Both the position numbers and the translations under genes were made by a program. From positions 1,653 to 65,652 of IMG/VR virus record IMGVR_UViG_3300045912_000129: a stretch of 64,000 bases of DNA; one strand, 5' to 3'. Source of the stretch: a virus. The notes under the pieces were generated by a model, which saw only the letters and a list, made by a program, of their open reading frames with translations, made no database searches and had not been told where the DNA came from. Below, piece after piece: positions 3,001 to 64,000 of this stretch; positions within the stretch are counted from its first letter, which is position 1; every line of letters begins with the position of its first letter.

Positions 3001-5870
3001 TAAACGGTGCTTATCGCTTTATTGGTAATGAAACTCAAGCTAACGAAACATCTTTACAATTTATAATGGACAGTGCTGTTATTTATGATAAGTATAAACA
3101 ACAATGGGTAGCTAAAAACAGTAAAGCAACTAAAGCATTTAATAATGCTATTAAATCTAGAATTAATATAGATAAGTTTCTATACTTCTTATCTGGTAAA
3201 GCTGGTGTAGGTCAAACAGCAGTACACGTTACACATCATCAGTTAGCAATGGCAGCTAATGTTCATTATAAATTATGGCAAAAAGGTAAATCAAGTTGGG
3301 TTTTTCCTCATAATACTTTTGATGGATGGCCATCATTTGCTGGAAGTACAGATAGTGAAGGTAACTTAATTAGTGAAACATTATCTTCATTAGTTAACTC
3401 TTACGTAGATGTTGCTAAAGATCCTTATATTTTTGATTTAAATGCTGGTTCAGATAATGCAAATGTTCAGTTCTTTTTGATTAGAGCTGGTGCTCCATAC
3501 AGTTGGATTTCTAAGTTTCTTAATCAACCTGTTATCAAAAAATATCAAGAAAATAAACGTAAGTACATGAATAATATTGCTAGACAAAATGGTATTTTTA
3601 AATCTAATGCTTATATTCATGCTATTACGTTACTAGAAATGGGTTATACTTTAAAGAACTCTGAAGGAAAACTTATTGCTATTGAAGATTTAGATAAAAT
3701 GAGTAAAGATGAAATTAATACTGCTTTATCTGGTTTTATATCAATCTCTTTAAAGACTAAAACTGATTTGCTTAATTTATTTATTGCAGAAAAAGCTTTA
3801 AAAGAAAGCAGTGCTCTAAAAGACGTTAGTATTGAACACGATGGTACAGAACCAGAATTAAGTACTGGATATGATCCAAAAGATTTTACAGAAGAAACAT
3901 TAAGATATCATATGTTAAATAAAAACAGTACTAATCCTGCTGATATAGAGTTTCAAGCTAAAATACTTGATTTATACTTAACTTACCAACAAGAGTCTGG
4001 TTTCTTACAAAGACTTATTAGAGCTACAAATCAAGACACTAAAGGTGTACCTAAGAATAGACAAGGTATTACTGAAATAGAAAAAAATAGATTATTCTTA
4101 AAAGAATTAAAAGCATTTGTTAACGGTGATAAAATACTTAAAGATACTATCGTTAATAAACCTAACGAAGCTGTTACTAAGATTTCTAAAGTATATGATG
4201 TAAAAATGAAGTTTCAAACTACAGATAATTTGTACTTTATGAAAACAGCTTTGATCAATAAGATTACAGAATTTACTAAAGATAAAAGTGAAGAAAATGT
4301 AAGTAAACTAGCTACTAAAATAGAACAAGATTTTACAGCAGCTCTTGTTAGTATTAAAAATGATCCTAAATATACTTATGAAGAGTTAATGGTATCTGGA
4401 CCTAAAAGTAAATATGAAATTATTGATAACGGTAATGTAGTAAAAGTATCATTACCTGAGTTTCTAAGTACTATAATGAAAGATCCTAAAGCTGTTGATA
4501 AACTTCCTAATAAGTATAAAAAGTATTATAAATTAAAAAATAATAATTTTATTAAAGAGTTACAGTTTGTATTATCTGATCAACAACTTACTAGTTATGA
4601 ATCTTTTCTTAATAAGAAATATATAAGTAATGACGTAACACCTTTTGATTATATTTCTTATAATAACAGACTAATTGATCCAGTTACAGCTAGTAGTTAT
4701 ATTTCAGATCTTAATGGTATTAAAAAACTATTCCCAGAGTTATATAATGATTTATTAAGACTTTCAATAGTACAAAATGGTTTCAGTAATAATAACAATA
4801 GTTTTGTGAGTCTTATTAATGAAGCAGACATTAATAGTTTGAAAATGGATGCTTGGGATAATTTTGATAATATGCCTCAGCAATTGCAAGATACTATTAT
4901 CAAAAGATTTATGGAAGAGTTTATAGCAAGATCCTATGACGCTATACCAATGGTACCTGAACCTAGAAAATTTACTAAAGTAGATAGAGTAAATGACGAA
5001 CTATACGAAACTATTAGTTATGAAAGAAAAGGAAAATTGGATAAAGAAAAGACTAACTTTACAGGGTTCTATATGGGTAATTTAACTGTAAATATCAATG
5101 GTATTGATAGAAATATTAAAGTAGGTTTTAAACCCAGTATTAACACTGATGAAAAAAATCCTCAAAATGTTGCTTATGATTTTAAAGCTTTTTATGAGTT
5201 GAGAACAGAAGTTAGAAACGCTAAAACTTTTCAAGAAGCTTTAAACTTAATTAATAATTCACCTAATATTGTACCATTAAGAGATAATGGTAATCTTATG
5301 AGATCATATCATAATCTTAAAGATACTAAAACGTTAACTGAAATTCAAAATGAATTAACTGACTATTTTAGTCAAGTATCCGTAGGAGATAAAATTATGT
5401 CATTATCGAAAGGTAATGTAGCTAGTGTTATAGAAAAAGATACAACTAATAACACTATTAAATTGCGTTACAAAGACGGTATAGAAGTAAGAATGTCTTC
5501 TAAAGCTTTTAACAAAACAATGCAAGTAGAAAGATATACACTTAATGATAAACAAAAAACTAATGAAGAACAAAAAACTAACACTAAATATACCTTTAGT
5601 AACATTATGCCTAATACTGTTATTCAATATATAAATGGTCCAAGAAAAGGTAAAAAAGCTACTGTAATAAGTAAAACAAAAACCGATATTAAATTATCAG
5701 TATCAAGTGATACAGGAGTAGCTTTAACTATTACTGTTAAAAAAGAAGATTTTAATAAAGATTTAGAATCTAATATTGAAATACTAGATACACCTATTGA
5801 TCTATCAGCTAGAGAAAATCTTGTAAATAAAAAGATAGATGAATCTAAAAACTCTAAGTGCAATAAATAA
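3..5870 (+). CDS. Giant virion-associated DNA-dependent RNA polymerase, crAss-like type (5'-truncated by the window edge)
   Basis: The frame is open from position 3, upstream of the listed ATG at 108. It contains GFRIPTQG and KAGSDFDIDKM, with the DxDxD metal-binding motif at about 1977-1991, as in crAss-like/phi14:2 virion RNAPs. Length exceeds 1950 codons. Confidence 0.88.
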   Translation, partial: KKDGKVTTRVIKDSNTLIKLHNANYDASKVKEIASMFDANDELYLSPGYGFRIDHHMSNKKYDGNFTTLLAQDVNVKAILVKDQNEELFASIAKVIITGTKDKYEMKFINKNGNEINKDELRLSEFAEHVLHEFYFKDGMKDPFKLARKVKMFLKAYEDMTEMDGESYMTLPMYKETLVRAGDWTAEQEMLYGKLMTNQPLTLQDMVNIDSYFRKLKTLGTGHLNQDQTTYDIPSANEIDRTLSVPLMYKHSILPLIPQMLGEDSVLSKLNSFMLSKGIDMLVYDSANKKIGALLNKEGKQTAIYDKEMNFNEKMDDGRPQTSSFSMFGVQVDMKPVLKEESTVGTQLRKLILSNMSEYGIPSDYRLANSKYSIETISQMWNKLTEQQKLNQSEFYRISKEYINIQNELYQKMIDDLMKELSITYDSKTGTYKMQDEGLEKLAEIVTGMAVDRGYNENVIKTIQRLSEPEILLDFLADKEKVENVLFAIIQNRVVREKRKGIGAPQTAVTGWELNKREIGISNEKVLKFYRMNHDKTKTLPAEVYYQLPNDGKLLNWFAKHYELSSKNDVVLINDILVNVNKDLDNLFEKLYAKEERGENVELTEYENKLLDLITIVGFRIPTQGLNSADFLRVRKFLPPYAGDTLVVPSEIVAKAGSDFDIDKMTLYFKNYKVGKDGLIFSKYDSDTSDEATKLRYDRYVNSVKLTKDDNFELKIELADSKLDVKDIKDQIKELKTLLKDNTKQFRSKKEKAIEYATNMSKSVFKQLPDELQTIYKAIENFFKEEKLKGLEKVREYSEITKTLIAYMNDNSLELNTGSAQMDEKLKNILNDKKNENLLEKLTLLNYTYEGIQMVMTSPTEVLLKDEIEFIKELSETLNNTSETLKEKLDKLKSEKVKILVDNKLILSYEDFKKLPIERQNTKEQLQDKMIDLHVDIMSHKLNHRLLLSPISDDNLKSADNGYVWDVRFMESNSQEMKAAYDEINKLLTSDKYKNKVKLINGAYRFIGNETQANETSLQFIMDSAVIYDKYKQQWVAKNSKATKAFNNAIKSRINIDKFLYFLSGKAGVGQTAVHVTHHQLAMAANVHYKLWQKGKSSWVFPHNTFDGWPSFAGSTDSEGNLISETLSSLVNSYVDVAKDPYIFDLNAGSDNANVQFFLIRAGAPYSWISKFLNQPVIKKYQENKRKYMNNIARQNGIFKSNAYIHAITLLEMGYTLKNSEGKLIAIEDLDKMSKDEINTALSGFISISLKTKTDLLNLFIAEKALKESSALKDVSIEHDGTEPELSTGYDPKDFTEETLRYHMLNKNSTNPADIEFQAKILDLYLTYQQESGFLQRLIRATNQDTKGVPKNRQGITEIEKNRLFLKELKAFVNGDKILKDTIVNKPNEAVTKISKVYDVKMKFQTTDNLYFMKTALINKITEFTKDKSEENVSKLATKIEQDFTAALVSIKNDPKYTYEELMVSGPKSKYEIIDNGNVVKVSLPEFLSTIMKDPKAVDKLPNKYKKYYKLKNNNFIKELQFVLSDQQLTSYESFLNKKYISNDVTPFDYISYNNRLIDPVTASSYISDLNGIKKLFPELYNDLLRLSIVQNGFSNNNNSFVSLINEADINSLKMDAWDNFDNMPQQLQDTIIKRFMEEFIARSYDAIPMVPEPRKFTKVDRVNDELYETISYERKGKLDKEKTNFTGFYMGNLTVNINGIDRNIKVGFKPSINTDEKNPQNVAYDFKAFYELRTEVRNAKTFQEALNLINNSPNIVPLRDNGNLMRSYHNLKDTKTLTEIQNELTDYFSQVSVGDKIMSLSKGNVASVIEKDTTNNTIKLRYKDGIEVRMSSKAFNKTMQVERYTLNDKQKTNEEQKTNTKYTFSNIMPNTVIQYINGPRKGKKATVISKTKTDIKLSVSSDTGVALTITVKKEDFNKDLESNIEILDTPIDLSARENLVNKKIDESKNSKCNK

Positions 5871-41234: not shown

Positions 41235-42782
41235 TTAGCCTTTGTAACAAATACCGTCATAAACTAATTGTTTAACTGAAAGTAGCGATTTAGCTACAGC
41301 TATTGCATTGATTAATGAATCGCAAAGTACAGAACAAGGGTCATATACTTTATAATTATTAATTTTTTCTAGTTTATTGTTTCTTAAATCTAAAGCCTGT
41401 CCTTTAGATATTTTAGATCTATACTCTTCGTAATGATTAATCAAATCACTATTAATAAGTAATTGTTTAAAAGGTTCTTCGATCGCATCTAATACAGTAT
41501 TGTAAGCTTTGTTATTTGAAGGACTGTATAAATCGTTTTTAACATTAATAAAAGTATAACCACCTCCTACGCATACTCCTTCTTTTATTGCTGAATAAAC
41601 AGCAAGAACAGCATCATCTAATCTATCTTTTATTTCTTTCATTTCTAATTCTGTACGACCTCCTGCGTATATAACAGCTACTCCTCCTGTTAAGTTAGCT
41701 AACCGTTTACGTAACCATTTTCTTTCCATATTTGATAGACTCAATTCATCGTTATCAGCATCTTCTTGTAACTTATACTTTATTTCTTCTATAATTTGTT
41801 CAACTAACTCTGTATCTTGTCTTCCGTCAAGAATAGAAGTATATAATTCTTCTACAATAACTTCACCAGCAAAACCTAAATTATTAACATCTTTAGCAGT
41901 ACCATTATCTACAACCCATGCTCCTGTTAAAGCTGCTAAATCATTCATTAAAGCTATTTTTCTATCACCAAATCCGTCATTTTCTACAACACAAACAGAC
42001 GCTCTACTTAATTCTAAGTATTGCTTAAGAGCTTTAGTAGCCATTGTTGACATGTCATTACAGAATATTAAAAGGTTAGAACCTAAACAAGCTTTTAAAT
42101 AATACTCGATATCTGATAGAGCGTGAATTTCATCATTTAGAATTAGAATATTTACATTAGTAGCTCTGTAAACCATTTCTTTAGCGTCATTAACCATAAA
42201 ACCTTCTAACCAACCTCTATGTAATTTCATACCTGCAGTTTTAACTACTACAGTTTCATTTCTTGGTGAAGTTTTTACTTCTATATCTCCATATATACCA
42301 ATTTCTTTTATAATGTCATAAATGAACTCACCAATCTTTTCATCGTTAGCTGAAATAGAAGCTACTTCTTTTAATAGTTCAGTATTAGATTCAATACTTT
42401 TAGTATACTTAGTTTTAATAGTAGTAATAATATCATTAAGAGCTTTATCAAATTCTTTAGCTAATTGATAAAAAGAATAACCTTCAGCTAACAAATCAAA
42501 ACCTTTATTAATTAAGTATTGAGCCAAAATCATAGTTGTTGTAGTACCATCTCCTGAAGAAAGCATTGTTTTAACAGCTGCTTCTTTAAGAACTGTCATT
42601 ACCATTGCTTCATAGCTATCATTACTAGAAACATGTCTAGCTACAGAAACACCATCCTTAGTAATATGAGGTTTATTTTCTTCAGTATTATAAAGTACTG
42701 TTCTACCTTTAGCACCAAGAGTTAATTTAACTGTATTAGCTAGTTGATTAACAGCTTTTAAAATCAATTCAGTAGTTGTCAT
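41235..42782 (-). CDS. groEL: Phage-encoded group I chaperonin (GroEL-like)
   Basis: Motifs VKLTLGAKGR, ITKDGVSVA, GDGTTT, GFGDRK, RLANLTGGVAVI and KDRLDDAV...EGVCVGGG. No GGM tail. Confidence 0.92.
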   Translation of the reverse strand: MTTTELILKAVNQLANTVKLTLGAKGRTVLYNTEENKPHITKDGVSVARHVSSNDSYEAMVMTVLKEAAVKTMLSSGDGTTTTMILAQYLINKGFDLLAEGYSFYQLAKEFDKALNDIITTIKTKYTKSIESNTELLKEVASISANDEKIGEFIYDIIKEIGIYGDIEVKTSPRNETVVVKTAGMKLHRGWLEGFMVNDAKEMVYRATNVNILILNDEIHALSDIEYYLKACLGSNLLIFCNDMSTMATKALKQYLELSRASVCVVENDGFGDRKIALMNDLAALTGAWVVDNGTAKDVNNLGFAGEVIVEELYTSILDGRQDTELVEQIIEEIKYKLQEDADNDELSLSNMERKWLRKRLANLTGGVAVIYAGGRTELEMKEIKDRLDDAVLAVYSAIKEGVCVGGGYTFINVKNDLYSPSNNKAYNTVLDAIEEPFKQLLINSDLINHYEEYRSKISKGQALDLRNNKLEKINNYKVYDPCSVLCDSLINAIAVAKSLLSVKQLVYDGICYKG

Positions 42783-52253: not shown

Positions 52254-52339
52254 ACCTCCTATAACCACCCCCCTTTAGTTTTGGGAGGATTCCTCCCCCG
52301 GTAGGCATATTGCCTATCGGAAACTTTAAAAACTAAAAA

Positions 52340-52804
52340 ATGAAAATCAATTATTCAAAAGTCCTGGCGGAGCTCCGCCAGGCAGTCCAGACCGGCTCAG
52401 GGAGCGGATGGATTTTATTGACAGAGGACTCACTAAAGGTCCTCATGAATAGCCTCGGCGTGACCTCCGCCGCCGAGCTATTAAGCAAACAAGCGGAGTT
52501 CGTCACGGTACCATGCTATTTCGTACTTGAAACCCCTCCTTCAGAAGGCAAGGGGGCAAAGTACACCAGCCTTGCAAACCCTTTCCAAGGGGTCGAGGGT
52601 GGGCTAACCACCATCGACTGGAGCAATAAGATCTCTACTCCATACGCCTCCGGAGTAATCCGGAAGTGTACCAGAGAGGGTATTGTTTTTTGGTTAGCAG
52701 AAAAGCCGACCGGAAAATACGAAACTGGCTTTTACTACCGTGTCGCCCGCAAGGGCGAATCCAAGGCCTCTGTTAAACAGGGCCTCACGAAAAAACCTGT
52801 ATAA
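52340..52804 (+). CDS. Hypothetical early protein
   Basis: 154 aa with an A-rich leader; first gene on the + arm. Confidence 0.6.
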   Translation: MKINYSKVLAELRQAVQTGSGSGWILLTEDSLKVLMNSLGVTSAAELLSKQAEFVTVPCYFVLETPPSEGKGAKYTSLANPFQGVEGGLTTIDWSNKISTPYASGVIRKCTREGIVFWLAEKPTGKYETGFYYRVARKGESKASVKQGLTKKPV

Positions 52805-52961
52805 GGTTTCCCTAGTTAAATAGGGTTTTTACGCCTATATATACTGACCAAATATAGGCAATATACAGGTCCCCGCGCTATGGGTTAATAGCACGAAGAT
52901 CAACCCCATTATTATAATGGGGTTTCTTTTTATAAACCATTTTGCAACGTAGTTAGCATTT

Positions 52962-53596
52962 GGGGGCAGAGAAAAGGTATAGCTTAGGCTATATTCGCGC
53001 ATCTGTCCCGGCAAGAAGACCTGTCGAGCGCGAACAGGCTATCCTACTCTAGTCGGGAAGTAGGACGAACAGAACCGACCTCCACTTCGGTGTGGAGAAA
53101 TTTCCCTTCGGGGAGCCCTTGTACAGTGGGTGAGGTCAACCTCAACTGTACGATGAACCGCCATGGTGACATGGTACTTAACTCGGTAGTGGGAGTTAAG
53201 CTAAGGGTTGCAAGAAGTTACTCTACGGAGTAATGAGCACTCACTACGGCAGTACCCTACGGGGTGAGGTGTCCTAACAGGCCCTCTCATGAACTGCCCA
53301 CACAGACCCAGTGACGACTGGTAATCTGTGGGATGACACACCGCTGACGAGCGGGAATCGCCTAGTTGACTAGGCGTGGGTTGATCACCCTAACAATCCG
53401 TTCCTACACGTTATGTAGGTTGGTATATCTCGTCGTTGGGAGTATACCGTAAAAAGAAAGAAGCCTGTGGCACGCAGGTGAGCACTCAACGATGACCTCA
53501 CGTCTTACTAAAAATCAAGTAAGAGTGTAGGAAAAAGGAGGAGCGGAGTGGCTTTTCCTAGGATCAATGTGGTTACCACATAAACGATCCAGTGCA
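52962..53596 (+). ncRNA. Candidate large structured ncRNA 1 (about 640 nt), upstream of tRNA-Glu
   Basis: No ORF in the track. More than 15 consecutive hairpins, including C(UUCG)G at 53085 and 53106 and C(UACG)G at 53223 and 53257. Confidence 0.6.
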
Positions 53597-53606
53597 AAAA
53601 TTTTAA

Positions 53607-53678
53607 AGCCCATTCGTCTATCGGTTAGGACGTCAGATTTTCATTCTGAAAAGAGGAGTTCGATTCTCCTATGGGCTG
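53607..53678 (+). tRNA. trnE: tRNA-Glu(UUC), no encoded CCA
   Basis: Acceptor AGCCCAT/ATGGGCT, anticodon arm TCAGA-TT TTC AT-TCTGA, T-arm AGGAG-TTCGATT-CTCCT. Confidence 0.92.
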
Positions 53679-53706
53679 CAAAGCTACTTGCATTTGCAGT
53701 AGCCTA

Positions 53707-53895
53707 ACCTCCCCTACAGCTGCTATGCCGTGTATTGGCTCTAAAGCACTTAGGGGAGGGATTTAATTTTATTCTCTCTTATACTGCAATGCCCTGGCCA
53801 TTTGGAGCAGCGGCAAGACAGGTAAGGAGAATAAAATATCAACAAACCTCCCCTACAGTTGCTTGGGTTCAAGCCGTGAAGCACTTAGGGGAGGA
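53707..53895 (+). repeat. Two copies of a CCTCCCCTA...TAGGGGAGG irregular hairpin
   Basis: Copies at about 53707-53760 and 53847-53895 share ACCTCCCCTACAGYTGCT...AAGCACTTAGGGGAGG. Confidence 0.75.
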
Positions 53896-54152
53896 TTTTA
53901 ATATTAAAACTCCGTTGGTCTATCGGAGTATAAAACATAGACTCCCGCGTTATTCCTGCGGGTATCCCCTCTGGGGATAATAGCTCCCTCATAGAGGGTA
54001 TATCTGACATTTTGCCGTGGTGTCAGATGAATTAGAATGCGGCACCTCGCTAGCATACCGAGGTATATAAATAGTATGCTTATTTTTTAATTCCCCTTAC
54101 GGGGCGTTACCCTTGACGAGACAAGGCGTGACCCTGGAAGGGGTTTTGAATC

Positions 54153-54296
54153 ATGACGATTAAAGAAATATTTAATCTTCTGGTCGACATGTACGACCAG
54201 GAGCTCTACTCCCTCGAGCGTCACCACGTAGGTGATGCTCAATTGTTGGTAGCCTTGGAAAAGGCTATCAACATCTTGAGACCTTTCGTTAAGTAG
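54153..54296 (+). CDS. 47-aa protein (paralogue A, HVGD motif); not in the ORF track
   Basis: MTIKEIFNLLVDMYDQELYSLERHHVGDAQLLVALEKAINILRPFVK. Similar to the next ORF and preceded by the same leader. Confidence 0.65.
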   Translation: MTIKEIFNLLVDMYDQELYSLERHHVGDAQLLVALEKAINILRPFVK

Positions 54297-54495
54297 TGAA
54301 AGGTCTCAAACTCCGTGTCATTCCGGAGTCTAAACATAGAATGACAAACCGCGTTACCTTCCGCGGTATATAAGTAGAAGGCAGTAATATTGACCGCCTA
54401 CACCTGGCGGTATATAAATAAGGTGTATTATTTAATCCCCATTAGGGGCGTTACCCTTGACGAGACAAGGCATAGCCCTGGAAGGGGTTTTCGAT

Positions 54496-54666
54496 ATGGT
54501 GATTACTGAAATGAGCCCAAAGGGCTTAATCAATTTAATATTCAACCTTTATCAGGTTGAATATTATAAAATGCGGGGTCACGTAGGTGATCCCGCCTAC
54601 ATGGCCCTGCTCGAAAAATTAATCGAGCAGCTCGAGGCTTATGTAGGGGAAGACTGGTTCCTCTAA
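54496..54666 (+). CDS. 56-aa protein (paralogue B, HVGD motif)
   Basis: MVITEMSPKGLINLIFNLYQVEYYKMRGHVGDPAYMALLEKLIEQL. Start revised to the ATG at 54496. Confidence 0.65.
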   Translation: MVITEMSPKGLINLIFNLYQVEYYKMRGHVGDPAYMALLEKLIEQLEAYVGEDWFL

Positions 54667-54892
54667 CATAAGCCTCAACTCCGCGTCATTCCGGAGTATA
54701 AATATAGAATGACAACCACGCAACCTCCCGTGGTATACAAATAGGAGGCAGAAGAAATGACCTCGCTGACATACCGAGGTATATAAATAGTATGTTATTT
54801 TTTGCAGTGTAGTTGCACTGCCACCATAAAGTAGTAAACGGGGTGTAAGCCGTTATAACTACATATTGTTCACCTTCCATCCCCGAACTATT

Positions 54893-55507
54893 ATGGAAGG
54901 GAAGAAAAAGGATCGCGAGATCCGTCACTCAGCCCGTAAAATACACGGGTTGAAGAGTCTTCCTTGTCCGCCGATAGTTCGGTGGATGGGAGCATTTGGC
55001 ACTTTTAATGGGGAAGAAAGTGCCAAATGGGAGGCCTCCGACACACGAATGAAGTGTGCGGAGGTACTACTGCCCAATGGCAATGGGTCTTTTATGTCCA
55101 AATGCGGACAGAGATCCATTGGTATTGGTCTCTTAGTAGATCAAGCCAGAACACCATTGTTCAGAGCGTACAACTACGACGCTTGGACGAACAATGGTAA
55201 AAAGGGTTCTGTACCCTTTGGCGACTCTACTAAGTTGTACAGCATGTACAAAACCCACGAAAACTTAGTTTATGTAACTAAGTATCGTGAGGTGGCGGCC
55301 ATGCTACAACTCCACCATAACTACAACAGTTATTTGTGGACAGAGGCCACCATTGGAGACGGGAAGCGAGCACCCGTCTACAAGGCAGTAGTTTGCGATA
55401 CTGCTCGCAGCTGGGCAGTGCGCCAGCAAGCCATAAAAATGGCTGCAGCACTGAACGTTGAGGTCATCTGGGTAAACGACCTCAAGGCTATGAACTTCCC
55501 CACATAG
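54893..55507 (+). CDS. Hypothetical early protein (204 aa)
   Basis: ATG at 54893, followed by a terminator. Confidence 0.65.
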   Translation: MEGKKKDREIRHSARKIHGLKSLPCPPIVRWMGAFGTFNGEESAKWEASDTRMKCAEVLLPNGNGSFMSKCGQRSIGIGLLVDQARTPLFRAYNYDAWTNNGKKGSVPFGDSTKLYSMYKTHENLVYVTKYREVAAMLQLHHNYNSYLWTEATIGDGKRAPVYKAVVCDTARSWAVRQQAIKMAAALNVEVIWVNDLKAMNFPT

Positions 55508-55567
55508 CTCCTAGCAGACGGCACCTCTCTGGTTTTGCAGAAGCTGCCGGAAAAGAAACAAAAAAAA

Positions 55568-55597
55568 AGGAGGTAGACCAGACTACCTCCTATTTTT
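55568..55597 (+). terminator. Intrinsic terminator (possibly bidirectional)
   Basis: A-run, AGGAGGTAG-ACCAGA-CTACCTCCT, then ATTTTT. Confidence 0.8.
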
Positions 55598-55638
55598 CAA
55601 CTAAAATTTTCTTTGAAAGAGAGAAGAAAATTTTTTAA

Positions 55639-56175
55639 CGGGTGAGGGGTGAAATTCCCTGTGGCTAACGACCCGGCTACTATATACATGTTGACATGTA
55701 ATTATAGTTAGCGAACAATGTAGCCTATGGTACTCTCCCAATAAAAGGGTAGTCTTATAAGACTATAGGGAAACCGAGAGTACGTTTACAATAATGACGA
55801 TGATGCAGCTTTACCTGCTAGAAACATCTAGTTATATGTAAACGAGGTGAGTCCTCCAAGTGCGGCACCAGGCTGAGTGAGGGGATGCTGGTGCATTGTT
55901 ACTATTTCCTGCGTAGTAACAATTATTAAAGGTGATAGTGGTACAATCACCTTGCAGTGTTACAAAGAGAGATACTAGGGAGTGGCGTCCCGAAAAGATA
56001 CCTGGCAAGTATCAGTATCGAGAGTAACAAACGGGAATATCGTACCAACGAGGAACACAGGTTCCATAGTCTGCCCGTCCGATAAAGTCCCAATCCCAAA
56101 GGTAATGGGGATACTTATTGGAGAAAGAAGAGCCGTGCCACGCGGTAAAGTATGTGGGAGAGTAAACTCTAAATC
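55639..56175 (+). ncRNA. Candidate large structured ncRNA 2 (about 540 nt)
   Basis: Nested stems (GGCTAC/GTAGCC, GTACTCTC/GAGAGTAC, CGTTTACA/TGTAAACG, GCACCAG/CTGGTGC, TTGTTACTA/TAGTAACAA, AAGGTGAT/ATCACCTT). No credible ORF. Confidence 0.6.
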
Positions 56176-56627
56176 ATAACCAGCTGAAGATAGATACTTT
56201 ATATTTATCTCCAGCTGGTTATATTAAACCATTTGCAGTGTAGTTAGCATTGAAACATAAAAAGTAAAGGCGTTGATCTTACGCCTTAATTGATGCCTTA
56301 ATTGGCTAGAGAAGAGATCAAACCCCTGGTTATACTGTTCGCCTCCGAAAGCGCTGCTTCTGACTTGGCAACATGTATAAAGAATCCGACAGGGCATATC
56401 ACCGTTCTTAGTAGAGCTTCTTGGGTGATAACGATTCTAATATTAATTTAACTCCCGAAATGAAACCAAGCGTTCCTTTTTGAAAGAAAAAGAAAACGCT
56501 TGGTTTCTATCAAACCCTTTGCAGTGTAGTTAGCATTAACCGCGAGAGGCTATCCGCGGTATACAAATAGATGAGCCATTAATTGTTAATAAACCCTCCC
56601 GCTAGCATATCGGGAGTAATAAATAAT

Positions 56628-56828
56628 ATGCTTGTTATGACTCCAATCTTTATTCAGGTGGGGACTACCGTCTACGTGGGCGGTGGTCTCCACCTTGCCC
56701 AGTTTGCCATAGACTGGGCAACAAGAATAGGGAAGGAGTATACTGTACTCCCTTTCGGAGTACAATTCTCCTTCTCATCAGTAGACATGGCCTCACAGGC
56801 CTATGATCTACTGAGATCTATGGCTTAA
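56628..56828 (+). CDS. Small hypothetical protein (66 aa)
   Basis: ATG at 56628 or 56638. The listed TTG start runs through a pseudoknot element. Confidence 0.5.
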   Translation: MLVMTPIFIQVGTTVYVGGGLHLAQFAIDWATRIGKEYTVLPFGVQFSFSSVDMASQAYDLLRSMA

Positions 56829-57036
56829 TTTTATCCCGCTGGCATACCGGGATTAATAAATAGTATGCTTATTTTTAACCATTTGCAGTGTAGTTAGCAT
56901 TGAAACAACTCTTGACGAGGAGTATAAACTACGTATCAGTTCAATCGTCATACGAACTGATTAGCCCATGACGAAATCGGAGTGTGGGACCTCCAACTGT
57001 TTTTTTTACTTCATTAATTAATATATATATTAAATA

Positions 57037-57942
57037 ATGAAGTTTCTAGTTCTCGCCAAACCACTCGCGGTAGAGTTTGGCAGAGAATCCCTTATAGAGG
57101 AATTTATCTCCTCTATGGGGGCGCGTGTGCTTGCGAAAAAGCACATGGTGTGCGATTCGTCCAGGATCGCACGCCATTACCAGCAATTTGCTGGCAAGCC
57201 TTTTTTCCAGGGGCTTGTAAAATATTATACTGGAAAAAATATTGTCGCATATATGTGCGAGTGCGACAATATTGAAGTTCTCATGGCTATCCGCGAAGCC
57301 ATGGGGACAGCTAAAGTTTCTCCCAATTCATTTCGGGAGAAACTTATTGGAGACGTCTATGCAGAACGTTTCCAATCAGTGGGTGTCATTGACAATGGCA
57401 TCCATTGTAGCGATTCTGCTGAGGAAGGACTGCGAGAAATTGCAGTATGGTTTGGTGTGCCACCGACTTCCTCTCGCACAGAAATGGCACACAAGGCGGT
57501 ATGGAAGATTCTTTCTTCCGTATCCAAAGTAGACTCTCTGCAATACGCAGGGGGCGAACACGATGGCACTGCTATCGAGGGTAGTGTCATTGATTTGGAT
57601 TACCGCCTATTGACTAACGACATGCCCTTTGTCGTTAGCCAACTCGAAAAAAAAGGGCTAGTCATTGACAAGCGTAGTGTTGATGACGAAAGTGGGGCTG
57701 AATATGTTAAATTTGAAATCCGTTTTACGGGTGGCAAATGCGACATTGCAGTAGTTCCCACTGCAGCCTACGCAAACCAAGTAAGTAAATCTCATCTGAT
57801 TTACTTGGTTTCTGATACTCTCAAAGATGAGGTAAGAGCTATTAAAGCTAGTGCGAAAGCTACTGGTGATAAACAGCTCTACAAAGACGTAAAGCGGCAA
57901 TGTCGCAAACGTCTACTTGAGAGTATCAACTGGGTGGACTAA
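57037..57942 (+). CDS. ndk: Nucleoside diphosphate kinase fused to a Pol-beta-type nucleotidyltransferase domain
   Basis: N-terminal NDK: KP, HY...GKPFF..LV.Y and NGIHCSDS (phospho-His), ending EIAVWF. C-terminal: YAGG...GTAIEGSVIDLDY and KCDIAVVP. Confidence 0.8.
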   Translation: MKFLVLAKPLAVEFGRESLIEEFISSMGARVLAKKHMVCDSSRIARHYQQFAGKPFFQGLVKYYTGKNIVAYMCECDNIEVLMAIREAMGTAKVSPNSFREKLIGDVYAERFQSVGVIDNGIHCSDSAEEGLREIAVWFGVPPTSSRTEMAHKAVWKILSSVSKVDSLQYAGGEHDGTAIEGSVIDLDYRLLTNDMPFVVSQLEKKGLVIDKRSVDDESGAEYVKFEIRFTGGKCDIAVVPTAAYANQVSKSHLIYLVSDTLKDEVRAIKASAKATGDKQLYKDVKRQCRKRLLESINWVD

Positions 57943-58165
57943 ATAAAGAGAATGTGACGTCCACTCTTGCGTACCACGAGCGCATACTCGTGTAGCTTTT
58001 TTCTAATACGTTTTGTAGTTACCCAACAAAACGTATATACCTATGCCGTGATTCTATTTACTAGATAGCGTAGGTGCAAAGGATACTGGACACCTTTGAA
58101 CAGGAGCATTGGCAGAGTATAGATGTACTCCCCTCAGCCATTAACCACTCAATAAATAAATAAGA

Positions 58166-58720
58166 GTGGATAAAAAAATCTTCTTGTCTATCTACCAGCA
58201 GATAGACACAGATTTTCAGAGCTACGCAGCCAGCGTATGCTCTGTTTTAGGAGGAAACTTCCTCCCTGGTCCCATGAAAACATGGGAATCTTGCAGCCGT
58301 AAAGCAAAAGCAGACGGCTGCGAGATTAGTGACTTGAAAGACATCATCAGATGTTCTTTCATCTTCACTACCGAGGAGGAAGTTATGTATGCGATGAATC
58401 GCATACAATCCCTTGCTGAAGTTGTACGAGTAAAAAATCGTATGACTTCTAAAGGATACAGAGATGTGCTCATCAATGTATCCTTCATGGGAATTGTATG
58501 TGAAATACAATTGCATACAGCTCTTGGTTTAGCAGCCAAAGACGGAAAGGTGATCAATCACCCGACCGTTAATACTTGGTCTGCTAAACTTGGCCCCTTT
58601 GCTGGATGGGGTCACAAGCTCTATGAGCTTGAAAGAGCAGCCTCCCATCCGACTGTTGCAGCTATCATTGCTGTAATGGGTGTATGGTATTACGGATTAG
58701 TCCGTAAACTACTTTCGTAG
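58166..58720 (+). CDS. RelA/SpoT synthetase-like (small alarmone synthetase-fold) protein
   Basis: PMKTWES..RK, DLKDIIRCS, KGYRDVLINV, CEIQLHT and GHKLYE match SYNTH-domain motifs. GTG start. Confidence 0.7.
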   Translation: MDKKIFLSIYQQIDTDFQSYAASVCSVLGGNFLPGPMKTWESCSRKAKADGCEISDLKDIIRCSFIFTTEEEVMYAMNRIQSLAEVVRVKNRMTSKGYRDVLINVSFMGIVCEIQLHTALGLAAKDGKVINHPTVNTWSAKLGPFAGWGHKLYELERAASHPTVAAIIAVMGVWYYGLVRKLLS

Positions 58721-58781
58721 TACCATACAAAAAACTCAGCTATCCAAGTTTCTCGGTTTAGAGGATAGCGAACTACTGTTT

Positions 58782-58900
58782 ATAAGTTACAAGCAGCGTG
58801 TAGTTAATCTACAGGTTAAGAAGATGTGTTATCTTCTCAGGCTGTCTCTGCCAGGGCACAAAAGTGCGTCTAGTAAAGAGGTTCGCAGCTTGTAACTTAT
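58782..58900 (+). ncRNA. Multibranch RNA-like element closed by a perfect 13-bp stem
   Basis: ATAAGTTACAAGC (58782-94) pairs with GCTTGTAACTTAT (58888-900). Inner hairpins TGTAG/CTACA, GAAGAT/ATCTTC and GCAC/GTGC. Confidence 0.5.
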
Positions 58901-58912
58901 AAAATAACTTAT

Positions 58913-59287
58913 ATGACAAAAGTATTCAATTTTGGACACCCACTGTCCCAAAGTGCTATCACTAAGATCGAACAATACTTCGGTCAAGTACAGCACATCA
59001 AAGTGGGTGTCCAATTAAATGTTTTCGATGCGGACGCACCAGGCATCGAACAACAAGTATTAGACGTGGTGCGACCATACGCTACCGATTTTAACGGAGC
59101 GGAGCGTATGGTAATCATTAGTCCAGGAATGAGCAATGCTGCATGGGTATTAGCAGCAATCATTCATGGATTATCGGGGAGATTCCCCGAACTTGTTGAG
59201 CTTCGTCTCAACTCCGATAAAGTCTTTGACTTTTATAGAGTCATCGACTTGCAGGAGTTTAGAAACGAAGTCCGCAAGATCCGTTAG
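58913..59287 (+). CDS. csx15: Csx15-like protein (type III CRISPR accessory, candidate ring nuclease family)
   Basis: FNFGHPL, IEQYFG, PG...AAWVLAAIIHGLSGRFPELVELR and IDLQEFR match the Csx15 pattern as recalled. Confidence 0.78.
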   Translation: MTKVFNFGHPLSQSAITKIEQYFGQVQHIKVGVQLNVFDADAPGIEQQVLDVVRPYATDFNGAERMVIISPGMSNAAWVLAAIIHGLSGRFPELVELRLNSDKVFDFYRVIDLQEFRNEVRKIR

Positions 59288-59349
59288 CAAATATACCCTG
59301 ATTAACAGCTTATGGCACAGGGTATTTAATAACTATAAATCTAAACACT

Positions 59350-59703
59350 ATGATAAAAATAACTAGTGTTTCACAAATATTAAAAGAGGGTTTTACCCTC
59401 GACTTCCTAGTAGGTAAATACATCGCCTACAAAGGATGTATTATCCCCATAATTAACACTCCAACTCTGGAGGTTAATCAATGGGGATTACTACCAGACG
59501 AGATAGAACATCTCGTCAATTTGGATGAGGGGCAAATAGAGTATGAAACTACGTTTGTAGTTTCAGATAATCAAAAAGATTTAGTTCCTTTTCTTGGACT
59601 AAATCCATGCGCTCTCTTCTCACTGGAGGTTAAAAAATACTCCCCTCATACAAACATGAGTGAGGAGGATTTTAAGTACCTCCTTAATTTATTAACAATT
59701 TAA
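59350..59703 (+). CDS. Hypothetical protein
   Basis: 117 aa with ATG and an A-rich leader. Confidence 0.55.
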   Translation: MIKITSVSQILKEGFTLDFLVGKYIAYKGCIIPIINTPTLEVNQWGLLPDEIEHLVNLDEGQIEYETTFVVSDNQKDLVPFLGLNPCALFSLEVKKYSPHTNMSEEDFKYLLNLLTI

Positions 59704-59934
59704 AAATAGCCAAATCAAACCATCTTTGCAGTGTAGTTAGCACTAAAACATATCCCGCTAGCATACCGGGATCAATAAATAGCATGCTTCTACTACTAAG
59801 CAGACGTTTCGATACGTCGTGTTAAATAAGGGCTTAGTAGTAAGGGAGCGTGTCCCGTAGATTAAAACGCTGACTGACAGGAAAGACTGTCTTACCTAGC
59901 TGTGAACTCGTATGAGGTGAGGCTAGGGACATCC

Positions 59935-59995
59935 GGGGTAGAAAATGGCGATTGCTGTAACAACAGCAAAGTGGGTTCGATTCCCACCTATCCTT
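59935..59995 (+). ncRNA. D-armless tRNA-like element (61 nt)
   Basis: Acceptor GGGGTAG/CTATCCT, canonical T-arm GTGGG-TTCGATT-CCCAC, a 10-nt linker in place of the D-arm, and a 7-bp hairpin with a 4-nt loop in place of the anticodon arm. Confidence 0.6.
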
Positions 59996-60082
59996 GCAAA
60001 TTCCCGCTGGCATAACGGGTAAAGTATGCTATATTATTAACCAAACCCGCCGTGCCGGGGTATAATAGCACGATTTAAACGT

Positions 60083-60304
60083 ATGAAATTTAATTTTCAA
60101 ACCATCTTCATTCCCTCCTTGAATTTGGAGGTGAATGAGTTCCAATTTTTGAGCCTTCGGGCTCAAGTTAAACAAGGAGTACTCCCTCCCTTTGATTTTA
60201 CCGATACCAACGGTAAAGTCATTGGAAGCGTAGACTCCAACGGTCGTGTAGAAGGAGAATACCCCTTCACCGACCTTAACGACATGTTAACTACTCTTTT
60301 GTAG
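60083..60304 (+). CDS. Hypothetical protein
   Basis: 73 aa, flanked by pseudoknot elements. Confidence 0.55.
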   Translation: MKFNFQTIFIPSLNLEVNEFQFLSLRAQVKQGVLPPFDFTDTNGKVIGSVDSNGRVEGEYPFTDLNDMLTTLL

Positions 60305-60464
60305 TTAGCATGTCCCCGCTGGCATACCGGGTAAAGTATGCTACCGTAACACCTCGGTTATAATAAGGTGCAGTAATGACTCTGCTGGTATACCGGAGTA
60401 TAAACTAGTATACTGAAACTTCGTTTCTTTGAAAGAAAAAGGAAACGATTAAAAAATTAAACTT

Positions 60465-60737
60465 ATGATGAACAAAGAAATTTTAGATCTCCTTGAGATG
60501 ATTCTCAAAGGAGATCAAGAGGCAATTGCCTCTATTATAAATACCCAAATCAATCGGTTGCAAATTGCAGCCGACGATTGGGACAACAACCATCACGGTA
60601 GCAATAGCTCCATCTACCGTGAGTATCTAGAGATGGAGCTTAGTACAGCAACTGGTATGATTGCTGTACTGAAAAAACATAATCATACCACACTTGCAGA
60701 TAAACTCAGCATTGCTGTAGCTTATTCTGCAGTGTAA
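60465..60737 (+). CDS. Hypothetical helical protein
   Basis: 90 aa with an A-rich leader. Confidence 0.55.
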   Translation: MMNKEILDLLEMILKGDQEAIASIINTQINRLQIAADDWDNNHHGSNSSIYREYLEMELSTATGMIAVLKKHNHTTLADKLSIAVAYSAV

Positions 60738-60856
60738 TTTTTTCCGCTAGCATACCGGGTAAAGTATGCTATCAAACCCTTTGCAGTGTAGTTAGCTATA
60801 CCGCTTGCATACCGGTTATAATAGTATGCTATTCATTAACCAAAAACAATCAGACC

Positions 60857-61102
60857 ATGAAAATAAAAATTAAATCCACCAGTGCATTAGCACGGTGGAT
60901 CAAAGCCATCGAAAACAGTCTCAATATTGCTCGTTCTGAGCAGTATGAGGCAGCTTATATGGGGGAAGATTCTCTTTTCTACGACGAAATCGTAGAAAAA
61001 GGAGAGTCAACTCTTCGTCTCATTGAGAGAAGAGTTAAAAAACTCTCCCCCAAAAAACAAGCAATTCTTAAGCCTCTCATTGAGAGAGCTTGGAATGCTT
61101 AA
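60857..61102 (+). CDS. Small helical protein, paralogue of 63557-end
   Basis: STSALARWIK...LRLIERRVKKLSP...ILKPLIERAWNA aligns with the last ORF. Confidence 0.65.
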   Translation: MKIKIKSTSALARWIKAIENSLNIARSEQYEAAYMGEDSLFYDEIVEKGESTLRLIERRVKKLSPKKQAILKPLIERAWNA

Positions 61103-61221
61103 AACAAATCGCGTAACCTCCCGCGGTATATAAGTAGGAGGCGTTTATAGTTAACACTAGCCCTTTGACAGCTGGGGCTATATAAATGAGCTGTTAATTC
61201 TTTTGAAAAACCAATAAAACT

Positions 61222-61638
61222 ATGAATATGACACACAAAAAAGAAGAAGTAGTTGTAAAACCCTACTTACTAAACATCAGTAACCACCCCTCCTCTGGAT
61301 GGACTGATAAACAAATCATGGCTGCCCGAAGAGATTATCGGGCAATAATTGACTTCTCTTTTCCAAACGTCGACCCTGAGCTCGACGAGGAAGGAGTTCG
61401 TCAACTAGCAGAGAAAACCATTTTTGACATTCTTTGGCATTTGCCAGAGAGAAGTGAGGCATTAGTAGCCCACGTCATGGGCGAAATGTCCTTGGTATAT
61501 CAAATGGTCAATCTGCTGGAGTCTAAAAACATCACTTGTATTTGCAGCACCACCAAGAGGATTGTGGAGGTGCTTCCAAACGGACAAAAACTCAGCAAGT
61601 TTGAGTTTGTCCGTTTTAGACCATATGTAGCTAAATAG
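61222..61638 (+). CDS. csx20: Csx20-like protein (type III CRISPR ring nuclease family)
   Basis: LLNISNHPSSGW...Q..AA, DFSFPNVDP, HVMGEMSL, CSTTKR and FEFVRFRPY match the Csx20 pattern as recalled. Confidence 0.82.
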   Translation: MNMTHKKEEVVVKPYLLNISNHPSSGWTDKQIMAARRDYRAIIDFSFPNVDPELDEEGVRQLAEKTIFDILWHLPERSEALVAHVMGEMSLVYQMVNLLESKNITCICSTTKRIVEVLPNGQKLSKFEFVRFRPYVAK

Positions 61639-62169
61639 CACATATGGTTTAACCGCTAGCATACCGGTTATAATAGTACGCTAACCGTGTAATCTCTCAC
61701 GGTATATAAATAAGAGTAGTATTGACCCTGCTTGCATATCAGGGTATATAAATAGTATGCTTAACTAAACATAAAGGAGTAGAGTACTCGCACCTCTATT
61801 TTCTTTTATGTTTATTTTAATTTATCAACTTTACTTCTTATGGTTTTTAATTTAATTACTTTTCTTTTTTTTCTTTAAGACTTCCCAGGAGTATCTTGTA
61901 GTGCGAGCAAGAGAAACTGGGTGTATCCTATTCTTTTGAGGACAAGAATAGGAAAAATAAAGTCCTCCACTGCTTTAGTGTCATTTTGATACTAAGGCAG
62001 TGTTTTAACCAGATGTTCTTGAAACAAAGAGAACACTGGTTATTAAACTTTTTGCAGTGTAATTAGCTGCAAACCTCTTTAGCATATAGAGGTTATAAAG
62101 AATATGCTGTTTTATGCTTGAAAGAAATTAAAAAGTCTTTCAAGTTTTATTAACATAAAATTTATCACT

Positions 62170-62529
62170 ATGAATCTTCTCTCTTCACTCGACAGTGTAA
62201 ACTTGTTACTGGCAGCAAGTTTACCCTTTGAAGCTTTCTATGAGCAATTCATGGAGAGCTTAACTTTTTGCCGTGAATTTCATGGTAAAGGTTTTGACAA
62301 AGTTGACTTTACCAACTTTGACAATGCCAGCCTTAAAAGACCTGATCTTCTCTTGGGTGTATGTTTTACACCCAAGTATGTGTTCCTATATGCTTACCAT
62401 GGCAAATGGGAGCACTCAAGTCGAGTCAAACTCTCTGCTGAAACGTCTCTTTCAGACTACTTGTCAGCAGTAGAGTCTGTTACCAAAACCTTTGCAGAAA
62501 TAGTTTACAACTACCTCAAAGGTTTGTAA
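62170..62529 (+). CDS. Hypothetical protein
   Basis: 119 aa with ATG. Confidence 0.55.
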   Translation: MNLLSSLDSVNLLLAASLPFEAFYEQFMESLTFCREFHGKGFDKVDFTNFDNASLKRPDLLLGVCFTPKYVFLYAYHGKWEHSSRVKLSAETSLSDYLSAVESVTKTFAEIVYNYLKGL

Positions 62530-62566
62530 AAAACCCCGCTAGCATACCGGGTAAAGTATGCTAATT

Positions 62567-62728
62567 ATTGAGTAAGCTAACGGCTTACAAGTGCAGCAAG
62601 GAGAAATGCCTTGTGATGCAGCCAGCTAGTCATATGACTAACGGTATATGTTATGCAGACATCTGAGAGATGATGCTCCACATATAGCCCGGAGATGGTG
62701 TTTAGTTAGTCCACTAAGCTTACTCAAT
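62567..62728 (+). ncRNA. Multibranch RNA-like element closed by a perfect 12-bp stem
   Basis: ATTGAGTAAGCT pairs with AGCTTACTCAAT. Inner hairpins CAAGG/CCTTG, TAGTCA/TGACTA and CATC/GATG. Confidence 0.5.
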
Positions 62729-62832
62729 TTTTAATGAGTGATCTTGAAAGAAATGACAAGATTGCTTATTACTAACAGCGTAACTTCTCAAGTTTAAAAG
62801 GAAAGTTAATCTTGTGAATTACGCTATAATAT

Positions 62833-62903
62833 ACTTCATTCGTCTAATGGTAAGACGCTAGATTGTCTATCTAGAGATAAGAGTTCGATTCTCTTATGAA
62901 GTG
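62833..62903 (+). tRNA. trnD: tRNA-Asp(GUC), no encoded CCA
   Basis: Acceptor ACTTCAT/ATGAAGT, anticodon arm CTAGA-TT GTC TA-TCTAG, T-arm AAGAG-TTCGATT-CTCTT. Confidence 0.92.
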
Positions 62904-63047
62904 CAACCGTGTAACTTTCACGTTAAAAAAGTACTCTGTAACACTCAGAGTTTAAATATAAAGTGTTTTCACTATTTATTTTTTCACCACCCCGCAAGGG
63001 CGTTACCCTTAACGAGATAAGGCCATGCTCTGGAAGGAGATTAAACC

Positions 63048-63377
63048 ATGGTAAAAGTACAGTCAATCAGTGTAGTGTGCCAGCTAAAAGGCTTGAAAAG
63101 CCTTGTTAACAAGTACTGTCTTCTTCCTAGTGGAGAGATAGTGTTTGTTAATAAATGTCCAAAGATAAAAATGGACCATACAGGGAAAACTATGGTAGAG
63201 TTTAATGGGGATCAATGCGTCCCCATTGAGAGAACCATAGCGTTTTCCAAACACCAAGAACCATTAACTAATTTTCAAACCCTAGCTAACAAGCTATGGT
63301 GTTTGAAGATTAGGAAAAGACCCTCAGACGTACCACTTGGTGTTTACCGGGTGTGTAAAACGTTGATGGGGGTATGA
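63048..63377 (+). CDS. Hypothetical protein behind the third structured leader
   Basis: 109 aa. Confidence 0.55.
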   Translation: MVKVQSISVVCQLKGLKSLVNKYCLLPSGEIVFVNKCPKIKMDHTGKTMVEFNGDQCVPIERTIAFSKHQEPLTNFQTLANKLWCLKIRKRPSDVPLGVYRVCKTLMGV

Positions 63378-63556
63378 TCTTGGTAAAACCGCGTAACTCC
63401 CGCGGTATACAAATAGGAGCAGCATTAATCCGCTAGCATACCGGTTATAATAGTGTGCTATATTAAACCTTTTGCACTGTAGTTAGCAACAAACCTCGTA
63501 AGCACACCGAGGTATATAAGTAGTGTGCTATTCATTAACCATAAAAACATCAAACC

Positions 63557-64000
63557 ATGAAAAGAACTTTTCAGACGAACCAAGAGTTCGTCGCAGCAAT
63601 GTACCAAATGAGAGCCATCAGCACCCTCACTAAATGGATCAAACAGATCCAATCCATTCGCAGCATTGCTCGTTATGAAGAGCATGATGCGGTTATGGGA
63701 GGAGCCGACTCCTCTCTGTACGAGGTTCTCGTTCCTTCAACCGATGCTTCTCTTCGCATCATTGAAAGGGAAGTTGCAGAACTCTCCCCTGAAGACCAAA
63801 CCATCTTCAAGCCTCTTATTGATAGTGCTTGGGGTGCTTATTCCCCAACCGAAAAAGCTGCACACTTAGAGGAGGACCAAGAGTTCTCTGAAACAGTGTG
63901 CAAAAAAGCGGTCAGCACACTCAGCAAATGGCTGAAAAATCTCCAAGAAATCCGTATCATTGTTCGTCATGAAAAACATGATGCGATTATTGGAGGAGGA
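63557..64000 (+). CDS. Internally repeated helical protein (3'-truncated; not in the ORF track)
   Basis: ATG at 63557, open to the window end. AISTLTKWIKQIQSIRSIARYEEHDAVMGG is repeated as AVSTLSKWLKNLQEIRIIVRHEKHDAIIGG. Confidence 0.7.
   Translation, partial: MKRTFQTNQEFVAAMYQMRAISTLTKWIKQIQSIRSIARYEEHDAVMGGADSSLYEVLVPSTDASLRIIEREVAELSPEDQTIFKPLIDSAWGAYSPTEKAAHLEEDQEFSETVCKKAVSTLSKWLKNLQEIRIIVRHEKHDAIIGGG

Follow-up and report, generated by a model that had tools for sequence, protein, structure and literature searches.

The window analysed in this study is a stretch of 64 kilobases (kb) from the 66,227-bp IMG/VR virus record IMGVR_UViG_3300045912_000129, for which CheckV estimated a completeness of 43%. 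It carries a gene of the Csx15 family directly behind a gene for a Tas1-like enzyme, with a structured RNA between the two. Csx15 was long a predicted ring nuclease, and work from 2026 has shown that cyclic tetraadenylate (cA4) is held between its head-to-tail stacked dimers. In the filaments formed in this way, some members sponge cA4 and others cleave it (10.64898/2026.01.21.700848; 10.64898/2026.10.26.761840). The three elements are as follows.

58166-58720, + strand: Tas1-like RelA/SpoT-homologue (RSH) pyrophosphokinase gene, 184 residues, directly upstream of Csx15
58777-58895, + strand: structured RNA leader in the spacer between the Tas1-like gene and Csx15, ending about 17 nucleotides (nt) before the Csx15 ATG
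58913-59287, + strand: Csx15-family gene, ATG start, 124 residues, predicted cyclic-oligoadenylate ring nuclease

The Csx15 gene and the phage that carries it

The preliminary description of this DNA, made from the letters alone, had named the gene a Csx15 homologue, and the hidden Markov model of the family bore this out over its full length. The NCBIfam model NF040560 (CAS_Csx15) matched the 124-residue open reading frame (ORF) with 60.9 bits (E 1.4e-16; the curated cut-off is 35 bits), and residues 4-124 were aligned with profile positions 2-125 of 125. When the whole record was searched in six frames, the same model gave 59.9 bits for this ORF and matched none of the 14 control genomes. 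The PADLOC Csx15 model PDLC01376 matched the ORF at 2e-11. Among solved Csx15 chains, sequence matches were obtained to 9tet (5e-7) and 9teu (0.01); the Cash effector 9ylu was matched in its Csx15 domain at 0.11. No Pfam-A model matched the ORF, with DUF7854 appearing below threshold only.

The residues on which binding and cleavage depend in characterised members are kept in the phage protein. In the alignment with 9tet, H9, H85 and R117 pair with chain residues 18, 89 and 123, which a constant offset of 7 converts to H11, H82 and R116 of PfCsx15; these form the cA4-binding dimer-dimer interface described by Chi et al. (bioRxiv 10.64898/2026.01.21.700848). H82 is the conserved histidine of the H-G-x-x-G-x-F-P motif. 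In the family, the catalytic histidine lies on the head face and the arginine triad on the tail face. The C-terminal tail R117-x3-R121-x2-R124 has the same spacing as R118/R122/R125 of HaCsx15 and R116/R120/R123 of PfCsx15. Studies of HaCsx15 have shown that the H8A and R125A mutants lose cleavage and keep binding, and that R118A loses both (10.64898/2026.10.26.761840). An exhaustive HMMER search gave 136 matches, 52 of which were aligned as the family; N6, H9, R117 and R121 were invariant in this alignment and R124 was conserved in at least 90% of the members. In the viral clade (8 members), all of these five residues and F105 were invariant. Judged by its position in an alignment that does not hold HaCsx15, F105 is probably the counterpart of the adenine-stacking F106 of HaCsx15. 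The serine ahead of the catalytic histidine of PfCsx15 has no counterpart in the phage protein because of a one-residue deletion.

The AlphaFold2 model of Csx15, built on the 52-row alignment, had a predicted local distance difference test score of 96.7. It contains five strands (2-6, 26-30, 66-69, 93-99 and 105-112) with flanking helices and a beta4-beta5 hairpin at 93-112, and HaCsx15 has been described with the same five strands and hairpin (10.64898/2026.10.26.761840). In an exhaustive VIA structure search, the top match was the viral SAVED ring nuclease AcrIII-2 (9r8s, Z 7.5), followed by Cap5, Cap14, TIR-SAVED, CalpL and Cap4 SAVED domains and then by CARF proteins. The Csx15 papers describe the same SAVED-first ranking for the family. 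Compared with the 84%-identical copy at locus L003 of a relative, the ratio of nonsynonymous to synonymous substitution rates (dN/dS) was 0.07 at a dS of about 1.5. This indicates that the Csx15 protein is under strong purifying selection.

The gene had also been described as phage-borne, and this holds: the same record carries a terminase large subunit, portal, major head protein, virion structural protein and phage GroEL, and the junction between the phage backbone and the region with Csx15 is reproduced in a contig from another sequencing run (see below). The chaperonin gene lies between the portal and capsid genes.

41235-42782, - strand: GroEL-type chaperonin gene, PHROG 5725 at 1.8e-110

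The nearest deposited relatives of the terminase were those of crAss-like phages of Bacteroides, Flavobacterium and Cellulophaga, with 27-28% identity. On these sequence grounds we regard the phage as a distant crAss-like phage, and its host is probably a member of the Bacteroidota. The remark that neither cas genes nor an array accompany Csx15 was confirmed as well. Both Cas10 models, TIGR02578 and TIGR02577, found no match across the 66-kb record although they did match in control genomes, and no CRISPR-like (clustered regularly interspaced short palindromic repeat) tandem array was found in the record. The association with type III CRISPR and Cas10 that is typical of the family is therefore absent here, as is expected for a viral copy. 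It is also not strictly defining, since 25% of the cellular copies lack it.

The phage Csx15 clade had no member in the representative genomes covering 185,579 species of prokaryotes, and tblastn searches of 50,697 deposited phages with Csx15 and with the Csx20 protein encoded nearby gave no match. Searching IMG/VR with Csx15, a 154-residue ORF, the neighbouring NDK-fusion gene and the Tas1-like profile added no further members, and the JGI metagenomes gave two distant matches only. The nearest outgroup, P0012 (41% identity), stands alone, without a Tas1-like gene, on a phage-like contig of 35-38 kb with an endolysin gene.

The Tas1-like enzyme and the RNA leader

A profile of seven homologues of the protein encoded upstream of Csx15 matched Tas1 in the Protein Data Bank (6ox6) at E 4.3e-7 over residues 14-181 of 184; 6ox6 is the (p)ppApp-synthetase toxin domain of Tas1. 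The single sequence matched 6ox6 at 0.002, and Pfam RelA_SpoT gave a weak match at 0.011. The residues invariant among the Tas1-like proteins are K38-x3-S42-x3-K46, D59-x2-R62, G97-Y-R-D and E113-x-Q-x-H-T, which correspond to the RSH synthetase motifs. Because these motifs are kept, the protein is probably active and potentially toxic.

The Tas1-like gene stands immediately ahead of Csx15 in all seven contexts in which the upstream side is readable. One of these is the window itself, and the other six are listed here with the identity of their Csx15 to the window copy.

L002: 94%
L003 and L004: 84%
Contig of P0004: 73%
L035: 67%
L044: 55%
L036: 44% (Tas1-like protein 41%; 24-nt gap between the genes)

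A further locus, L045, was not counted among the seven, as only 26 residues of its downstream gene are visible. The ORF behind its 55%-identical Tas1-like gene (1134-1211) starts with N-L-S-G-Y, compared with N-F-G-H-P in Csx15. With 26 codons to the contig end it is too short to call, and it may be a Csx15 variant in which the catalytic histidine is replaced.

Among 5.8 billion proteins, the Csx15 family forms seven clusters and the Tas1-like family six, and the two families diverge in step. A profile search for further Tas1-like relatives returned the same six clusters and nothing more. We also considered an obligate trio in which an NDK-fusion gene precedes the pair. This was rejected, as the corresponding slot in L002 holds an unrelated, unnamed 331-residue gene. 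What stays constant is the Tas1-like gene with Csx15 behind it, while the slots on either side vary.

About 190 nt separate the two genes, a length that is preserved in six loci. This spacer contains an RNA element of about 117 nt, in which an outer closing helix surrounds three inner hairpins. Outside the window, the copies are located as follows.

L002: 4159-4276
L003: 1882-1995
L035: 1856-1973
L044: 1785-1897
L045: 1001-1118

RNAalifold predicted 41 pairs from the six diverged copies, and 17 of these pairs were kept through changes on both sides. The fraction of paired cells was 95%, compared with 34-44% when the partners were slid, and the number of covarying pairs was 17 compared with 2-4. 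None of 500 shuffles attained the observed values of pairing or covariation, and the minimum-free-energy z-scores of the copies ranged from -3.1 to -6.2. The closing helix is formed in all six copies from differing sequences, and the element ends 12-20 nt ahead of the ATG. With a covariance model, R1, exactly one copy was found at each locus, in every case within this spacer, and the 64-kb window held no other. No Rfam family matched the element, and its invariant core was not found elsewhere in the viral or genome collections. The RNA either belongs to Csx15 as a dedicated leader or trails the Tas1-like gene, and it could act in the manner of a riboswitch or in processing.

The lone orphan of the preliminary description is thus the second member of a gene pair with a structured RNA leader of its own. 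This arrangement raises the question of whether Csx15 serves the enzyme rather than opposing CRISPR. It might occupy the immunity or antitoxin slot, or be a regulatory partner, and act either on the enzyme itself, which it would bind, or on an adenine-nucleotide product such as (p)ppApp, which it would bind or hydrolyse, with the RNA leader setting the ratio of the two proteins. A small conserved gene immediately downstream of an RSH enzyme, as found in all seven contexts, is the hallmark of the Tas1 type and of toxic small alarmone synthetases (toxSAS), whose antitoxin normally lies directly downstream and either binds the enzyme or hydrolyses its product (PMC12691689). The pair is kept down to 44% identity in Csx15 and 41% in the Tas1-like protein while the flanking slots vary, the two families are equally small and diverged in step, the synthetase motifs are intact, and the site of Csx15 is known to recognise adenines and phosphates. 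However, the full set of cA4-binding and cA4-cleaving residues of CRISPR-linked cellular Csx15 is unchanged, which would be unexpected if the ligand had changed, and the outgroup Csx15 of P0012 lies on a phage-like contig without a Tas1-like gene. An immunity gene is also less necessary to a lytic phage than to a toxin-antitoxin or type VI secretion locus, and co-inheritance within one phage lineage could equally be explained by shared ancestry and shared early expression. Taken together, we consider a primary role as partner of the enzyme unlikely, although it deserves serious attention.

The high-GC accessory arm

The pair lies in an arm whose guanine-cytosine (GC) content differs from that of the phage backbone. 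The features of the arm that surround the pair are given below.

52270-64000, continuing to about 64,200 in window coordinates, all genes on the + strand: high-GC accessory arm of about 12 kb, delimited by composition profiles
56866-56907, + strand: D1 repeat, a promoter-like intergenic motif ahead of the cassette, core TTTGCAGTGTAGTTAGCA
57037-57942, + strand: NDK-fusion gene, 301 residues, matching Pfam NDK at 4.7e-18 over residues 4-140, with an additional C-terminal domain without assignment
59350-59703, + strand: 117-residue ORF, the last gene before the next D1, in a slot that varies among relatives
59709-59750, + strand: next D1 repeat, an intergenic copy and the downstream limit of the cassette
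61222-61638, + strand: probable Csx20-family gene, 138 residues, 2 kb downstream of Csx15, of a second ring-nuclease family

The GC content is 28% in the backbone (1-52.2 kb) and 40-50% in the arm, and it jumps by about 17 points within 200 bases at approximately 52,270. In the last 430 bases of the record it falls back to 10-18%, so that low GC is found on both flanks of the arm. The arm contains small unnamed ORFs, two tRNAs and many dispersed repeats, and holds no cellular housekeeping genes. In PHROGs, no arm gene was matched except for a weak match of the Tas1-like gene.

Such an abrupt shift in GC could mark an assembly chimera at about 52.27 kb, in which case the arm would stem from another organism or element and Csx15 would not be phage-borne. 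Besides the shift itself, it would fit this explanation that a complete relative of 178 kb, G001, has neither the arm nor Csx15, and that contigs of two other relatives stop 1.3 kb past the last backbone gene. The decisive evidence is L002, a Logan contig of 9.8 kb that comes from another run and carries a diverged phage. Its bases 1-387 are 80% identical to the last backbone gene, bases 845-899 correspond to the junction itself, and bases 3477-4711 match the Csx15 region at 93%. Since all three parts recur in L002, which stems from another sample, the junction is not chimeric and this explanation is essentially refuted. The return of low GC at the record end, the lack of cellular housekeeping genes and the absence of the clade from the prokaryote species also argue against it, and we give it hardly any credence. 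The lack of the arm in G001 therefore shows that the arm is accessory. Csx15 was not found in any of five larger relatives of the phage backbone.

In the two large relatives whose contigs break off (G002 C1, 111542-113381, and G003 C1, 1-1840), the end lies about 1.3 kb past the homologue of the last backbone gene, and it is behind this gene that the arm of the present phage begins. The assembly may break repeatedly at this position, or the genome may end there.

Within the arm, D1 repeats of the TTTGCAGTGTAGTTAGCA type occur in eight intergenic copies on the + strand, spanning 52925-63496. The consecutive copies at 56866 and 59709 enclose the NDK fusion, the Tas1-like gene, Csx15 and the 117-residue ORF. 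This bracketing suggests that the cassette is one transcription unit, for which D1 would serve as promoter. A sigma-70 and terminator scan of the cassette gave no decisive signal. Other repeat families, D2 and D5-D8, are found in intergenic positions between 54044 and 63536; they are repeats of 36-46 nt made up of a hairpin and an A-rich part, and their loops can pair downstream in a pseudoknot-like manner. A GC-rich, ORF-free and hairpin-dense tract (53000-53600), without an Rfam match at the gathering threshold, lies directly ahead of a tRNA-Glu (here 53607-53679). Near the far end of the arm there is a 260-bp duplication with 75% identity (63579-63840 and record positions 65528-65787), and shorter repeats in common with it occur at 60743-60866 and 61004-61137.

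The NDK fusion lies upstream of the pair in six loci (the window, L003, the contig of P0004, L035, L044 and L045). At the other end of the cassette, the 117-residue ORF of the window had no match in Pfam, NCBIfam, PHROGs or PADLOC. The slot downstream of Csx15 is occupied by a tRNA-Glu in L002 and by an enzyme of the PolyA_pol/CCA-adding type in L003. The latter (L003 2668-3999) is a 443-residue protein with a PolyA_pol head domain, of the CCA-adding or poly(A)-polymerase type, that follows Csx15 and adjoins the locus of the RSH-type enzyme. Relatives of this RSH-type enzyme are able to pyrophosphorylate the 3' ends of tRNAs. The tRNA-Glu genes of the window and L002 are 97% identical; one lies 5 kb upstream of Csx15 (53604-53677) and the other directly downstream of it (L002 4929-5002). 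Because they stand on opposite sides of Csx15, the arm cassettes must have been shuffled between close relatives.

The Csx20 neighbour matched PADLOC PDLC01397 over its full length at E 3.2e-32. Against NCBIfam NF040559 it reached 30.5 bits, where the cut-off is 70, and the match covered the C-terminal half only. For the Csx20 family, ring-nuclease activity on cA4 has been confirmed by experiment. Csx20 was reported in 5 of 28,114 phage genomes, while Csx15 was reported in none of them.

Predicted function and comparison with known systems

By analogy with the characterised members, we believe with moderate confidence that Csx15 is a viral ring nuclease which captures and cleaves cyclic-oligoadenylate signals and possibly also those of CBASS (cyclic oligonucleotide-based antiphage signalling), and which is carried in an accessory arm and complemented by Csx20. 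A distant crAss-like phage would produce a catalytically competent Csx15 from this arm, probably early in infection. The gene would be transcribed in one cassette with the Tas1-like pyrophosphokinase and behind its dedicated RNA leader. The Csx15 dimers, as in characterised members, would stack head-to-tail around the cyclic oligoadenylate. A composite active site, made up of H9 from one dimer and the R117/R121/R124 tail of its neighbour, would hold the ring and then cleave it. In this way the second messenger of type III CRISPR effectors, and possibly that of CBASS effectors, would be removed, and the putative Csx20 ring nuclease 2 kb away would probably complement Csx15. Main-cluster Csx15 cleaves cA3-cA6 and CBASS trinucleotides, and its composite His/Arg site exists only in filaments (10.64898/2026.10.26.761840). 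In the literature, Csx15 has also been shown to neutralise type III signalling in vivo.

Csx15 might instead be a non-catalytic sponge that sequesters cA4 in filaments without useful cleavage. PfCsx15, which has the same histidine and arginine residues, sponges cA4 with nearly no nuclease activity, and CliCsx15 is very slow (10.64898/2026.01.21.700848); intact residues are thus no guarantee of turnover. However, the main-cluster enzymes with this residue set, HaCsx15 and CsCsx15, cleave at nanomolar concentrations (10.64898/2026.10.26.761840), and PfCsx15 has been termed a divergent outlier in the published papers. Moreover, type III systems make cyclic oligoadenylate in large amounts, so that sponging alone is thought to be ineffective. 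We regard a pure sponge as quite improbable. The preliminary description had proposed an anti-CRISPR acting either as a ring nuclease or as a sponge. What it said of identity, location and missing cas genes has stood, and the ring nuclease is now better supported than the sponge alone because the catalytic histidine and the arginine triad are intact; the anti-CRISPR role is still one that we infer.

Several points weigh against a ring nuclease directed at host defence. The activity of this protein is a prediction from its sequence. The characterised Csx15 proteins turn over slowly, and both Csx15 papers deem the family poorly suited to viral use. The structural matches are modest, with Z below 8, and Foldseek against the Protein Data Bank found nothing at E <= 0.001 for the model, the solved Csx15 entries not being among the matches. 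The record is only about 43% complete, and the presence of type III CRISPR or CBASS in the host is an assumption. Csx20 in the same arm would already handle cA4, which makes Csx15 partly redundant for this ligand. Finally, the invariable position behind the Tas1-like gene and the private RNA leader may mean that the function of Csx15 is tied to the Tas1-like enzyme and not to host signalling.

The Tas1-like enzyme, the structured RNA and Csx15 could also be one functional module that has hitherto not been described, which we put forward as a tentative and rather doubtful idea. In one version, the RSH enzyme would turn ATP into 3'-blocked nucleotides of the (p)ppApp type, which starve or poison the Cas10 and CD-NTase cyclases, and Csx15 would destroy the remaining rings. 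In the other version, Csx15 would have been recruited as a regulator of the RSH enzyme or as its antidote. In either version, the RNA leader could act as a nucleotide-sensing switch that times the synthesis of Csx15.

The idea of viral Csx15 as an anti-CRISPR is not new, as it was published in October 2026 (10.64898/2026.10.26.761840). What is new here is the pairing of Csx15 with a Tas1-like gene, the private covarying RNA leader and the co-resident Csx20 homologue. The locus offers a clean test case, with an intact and strongly conserved Csx15 on a crAss-like contig with virion genes, absent from cellular genomes and beside a second ring-nuclease family. The pairing and the leader suggest either that counter-defence against cyclic nucleotides is wired to the manipulation of nucleotide pools, or that a fold of the CRISPR accessory proteins now serves to keep a toxic enzyme in check. 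If true, either outcome would connect two thoroughly studied nucleotide systems in a new way.

Like the members of NF040560, the phage protein is a single domain of about 125 residues with a Rossmann-like fold that scores above the curated cut-off, and it shares with them the N-terminal N-F-x-H, the H-G-x-x-G-x-F-P motif and the C-terminal R-x3-R-x2-R tail. Its identity to cellular members is only 30-40%. In contrast to these, it is encoded by a phage without Cas10 nearby and always has the Tas1-like gene and the structured RNA ahead of it.

Reports from 2024 and January 2026 stated that Csx15 is absent from phages. The preprint of October 2026, in its section "Csx15 homologs in viruses", then described one homologue from an archaeal virus (Lokiarchaeota virus Skoll) and more than 20 metagenomic viral sequences, mostly from prophage regions, and proposed the name AcrIII-3 for viral Csx15 as an anti-CRISPR whose activity was not shown (10.64898/2026.10.26.761840). 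The gene studied here resembles these in that a genuine virus genome carries Csx15 by itself, with a hypothesised role as anti-CRISPR ring nuclease. Whereas the copies in the preprint are mostly in prophages, this one lies on a crAss-like contig with virion genes and belongs to a clade absent from cellular genomes. The preprint mentions no gene pairing, alarmone synthetase, NDK, RNA element or co-resident Csx20 (10.64898/2026.10.26.761840).

The pairs of Tas1/Apk1 with Tis1 and of toxSAS enzymes with their antitoxins (6ox6; PMC12691689; PMC11782079) likewise consist of a pyrophosphokinase of the RSH fold followed by a small conserved partner gene. However, Csx15 is not among the known immunity proteins and antitoxins. 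The pair studied here also differs in lying in an arm of a lytic-type phage with an RNA element between the genes.

AcrIII-1 (DUF1874/Crn2) and AcrIII-2 (viral SAVED, 9r8s) are established viral ring nucleases, which disarm type III CRISPR by destroying cA4, and the likeness of Csx15 to them lies in its predicted role. The DUF1874 fold of AcrIII-1 is unrelated to that of Csx15. AcrIII-2, the top structural match of our model, comes closer, as it too forms a composite His/Arg site by head-to-tail stacking, but it does so with a pseudo-dimeric SAVED chain, whereas Csx15 is a symmetric dimer of single domains.

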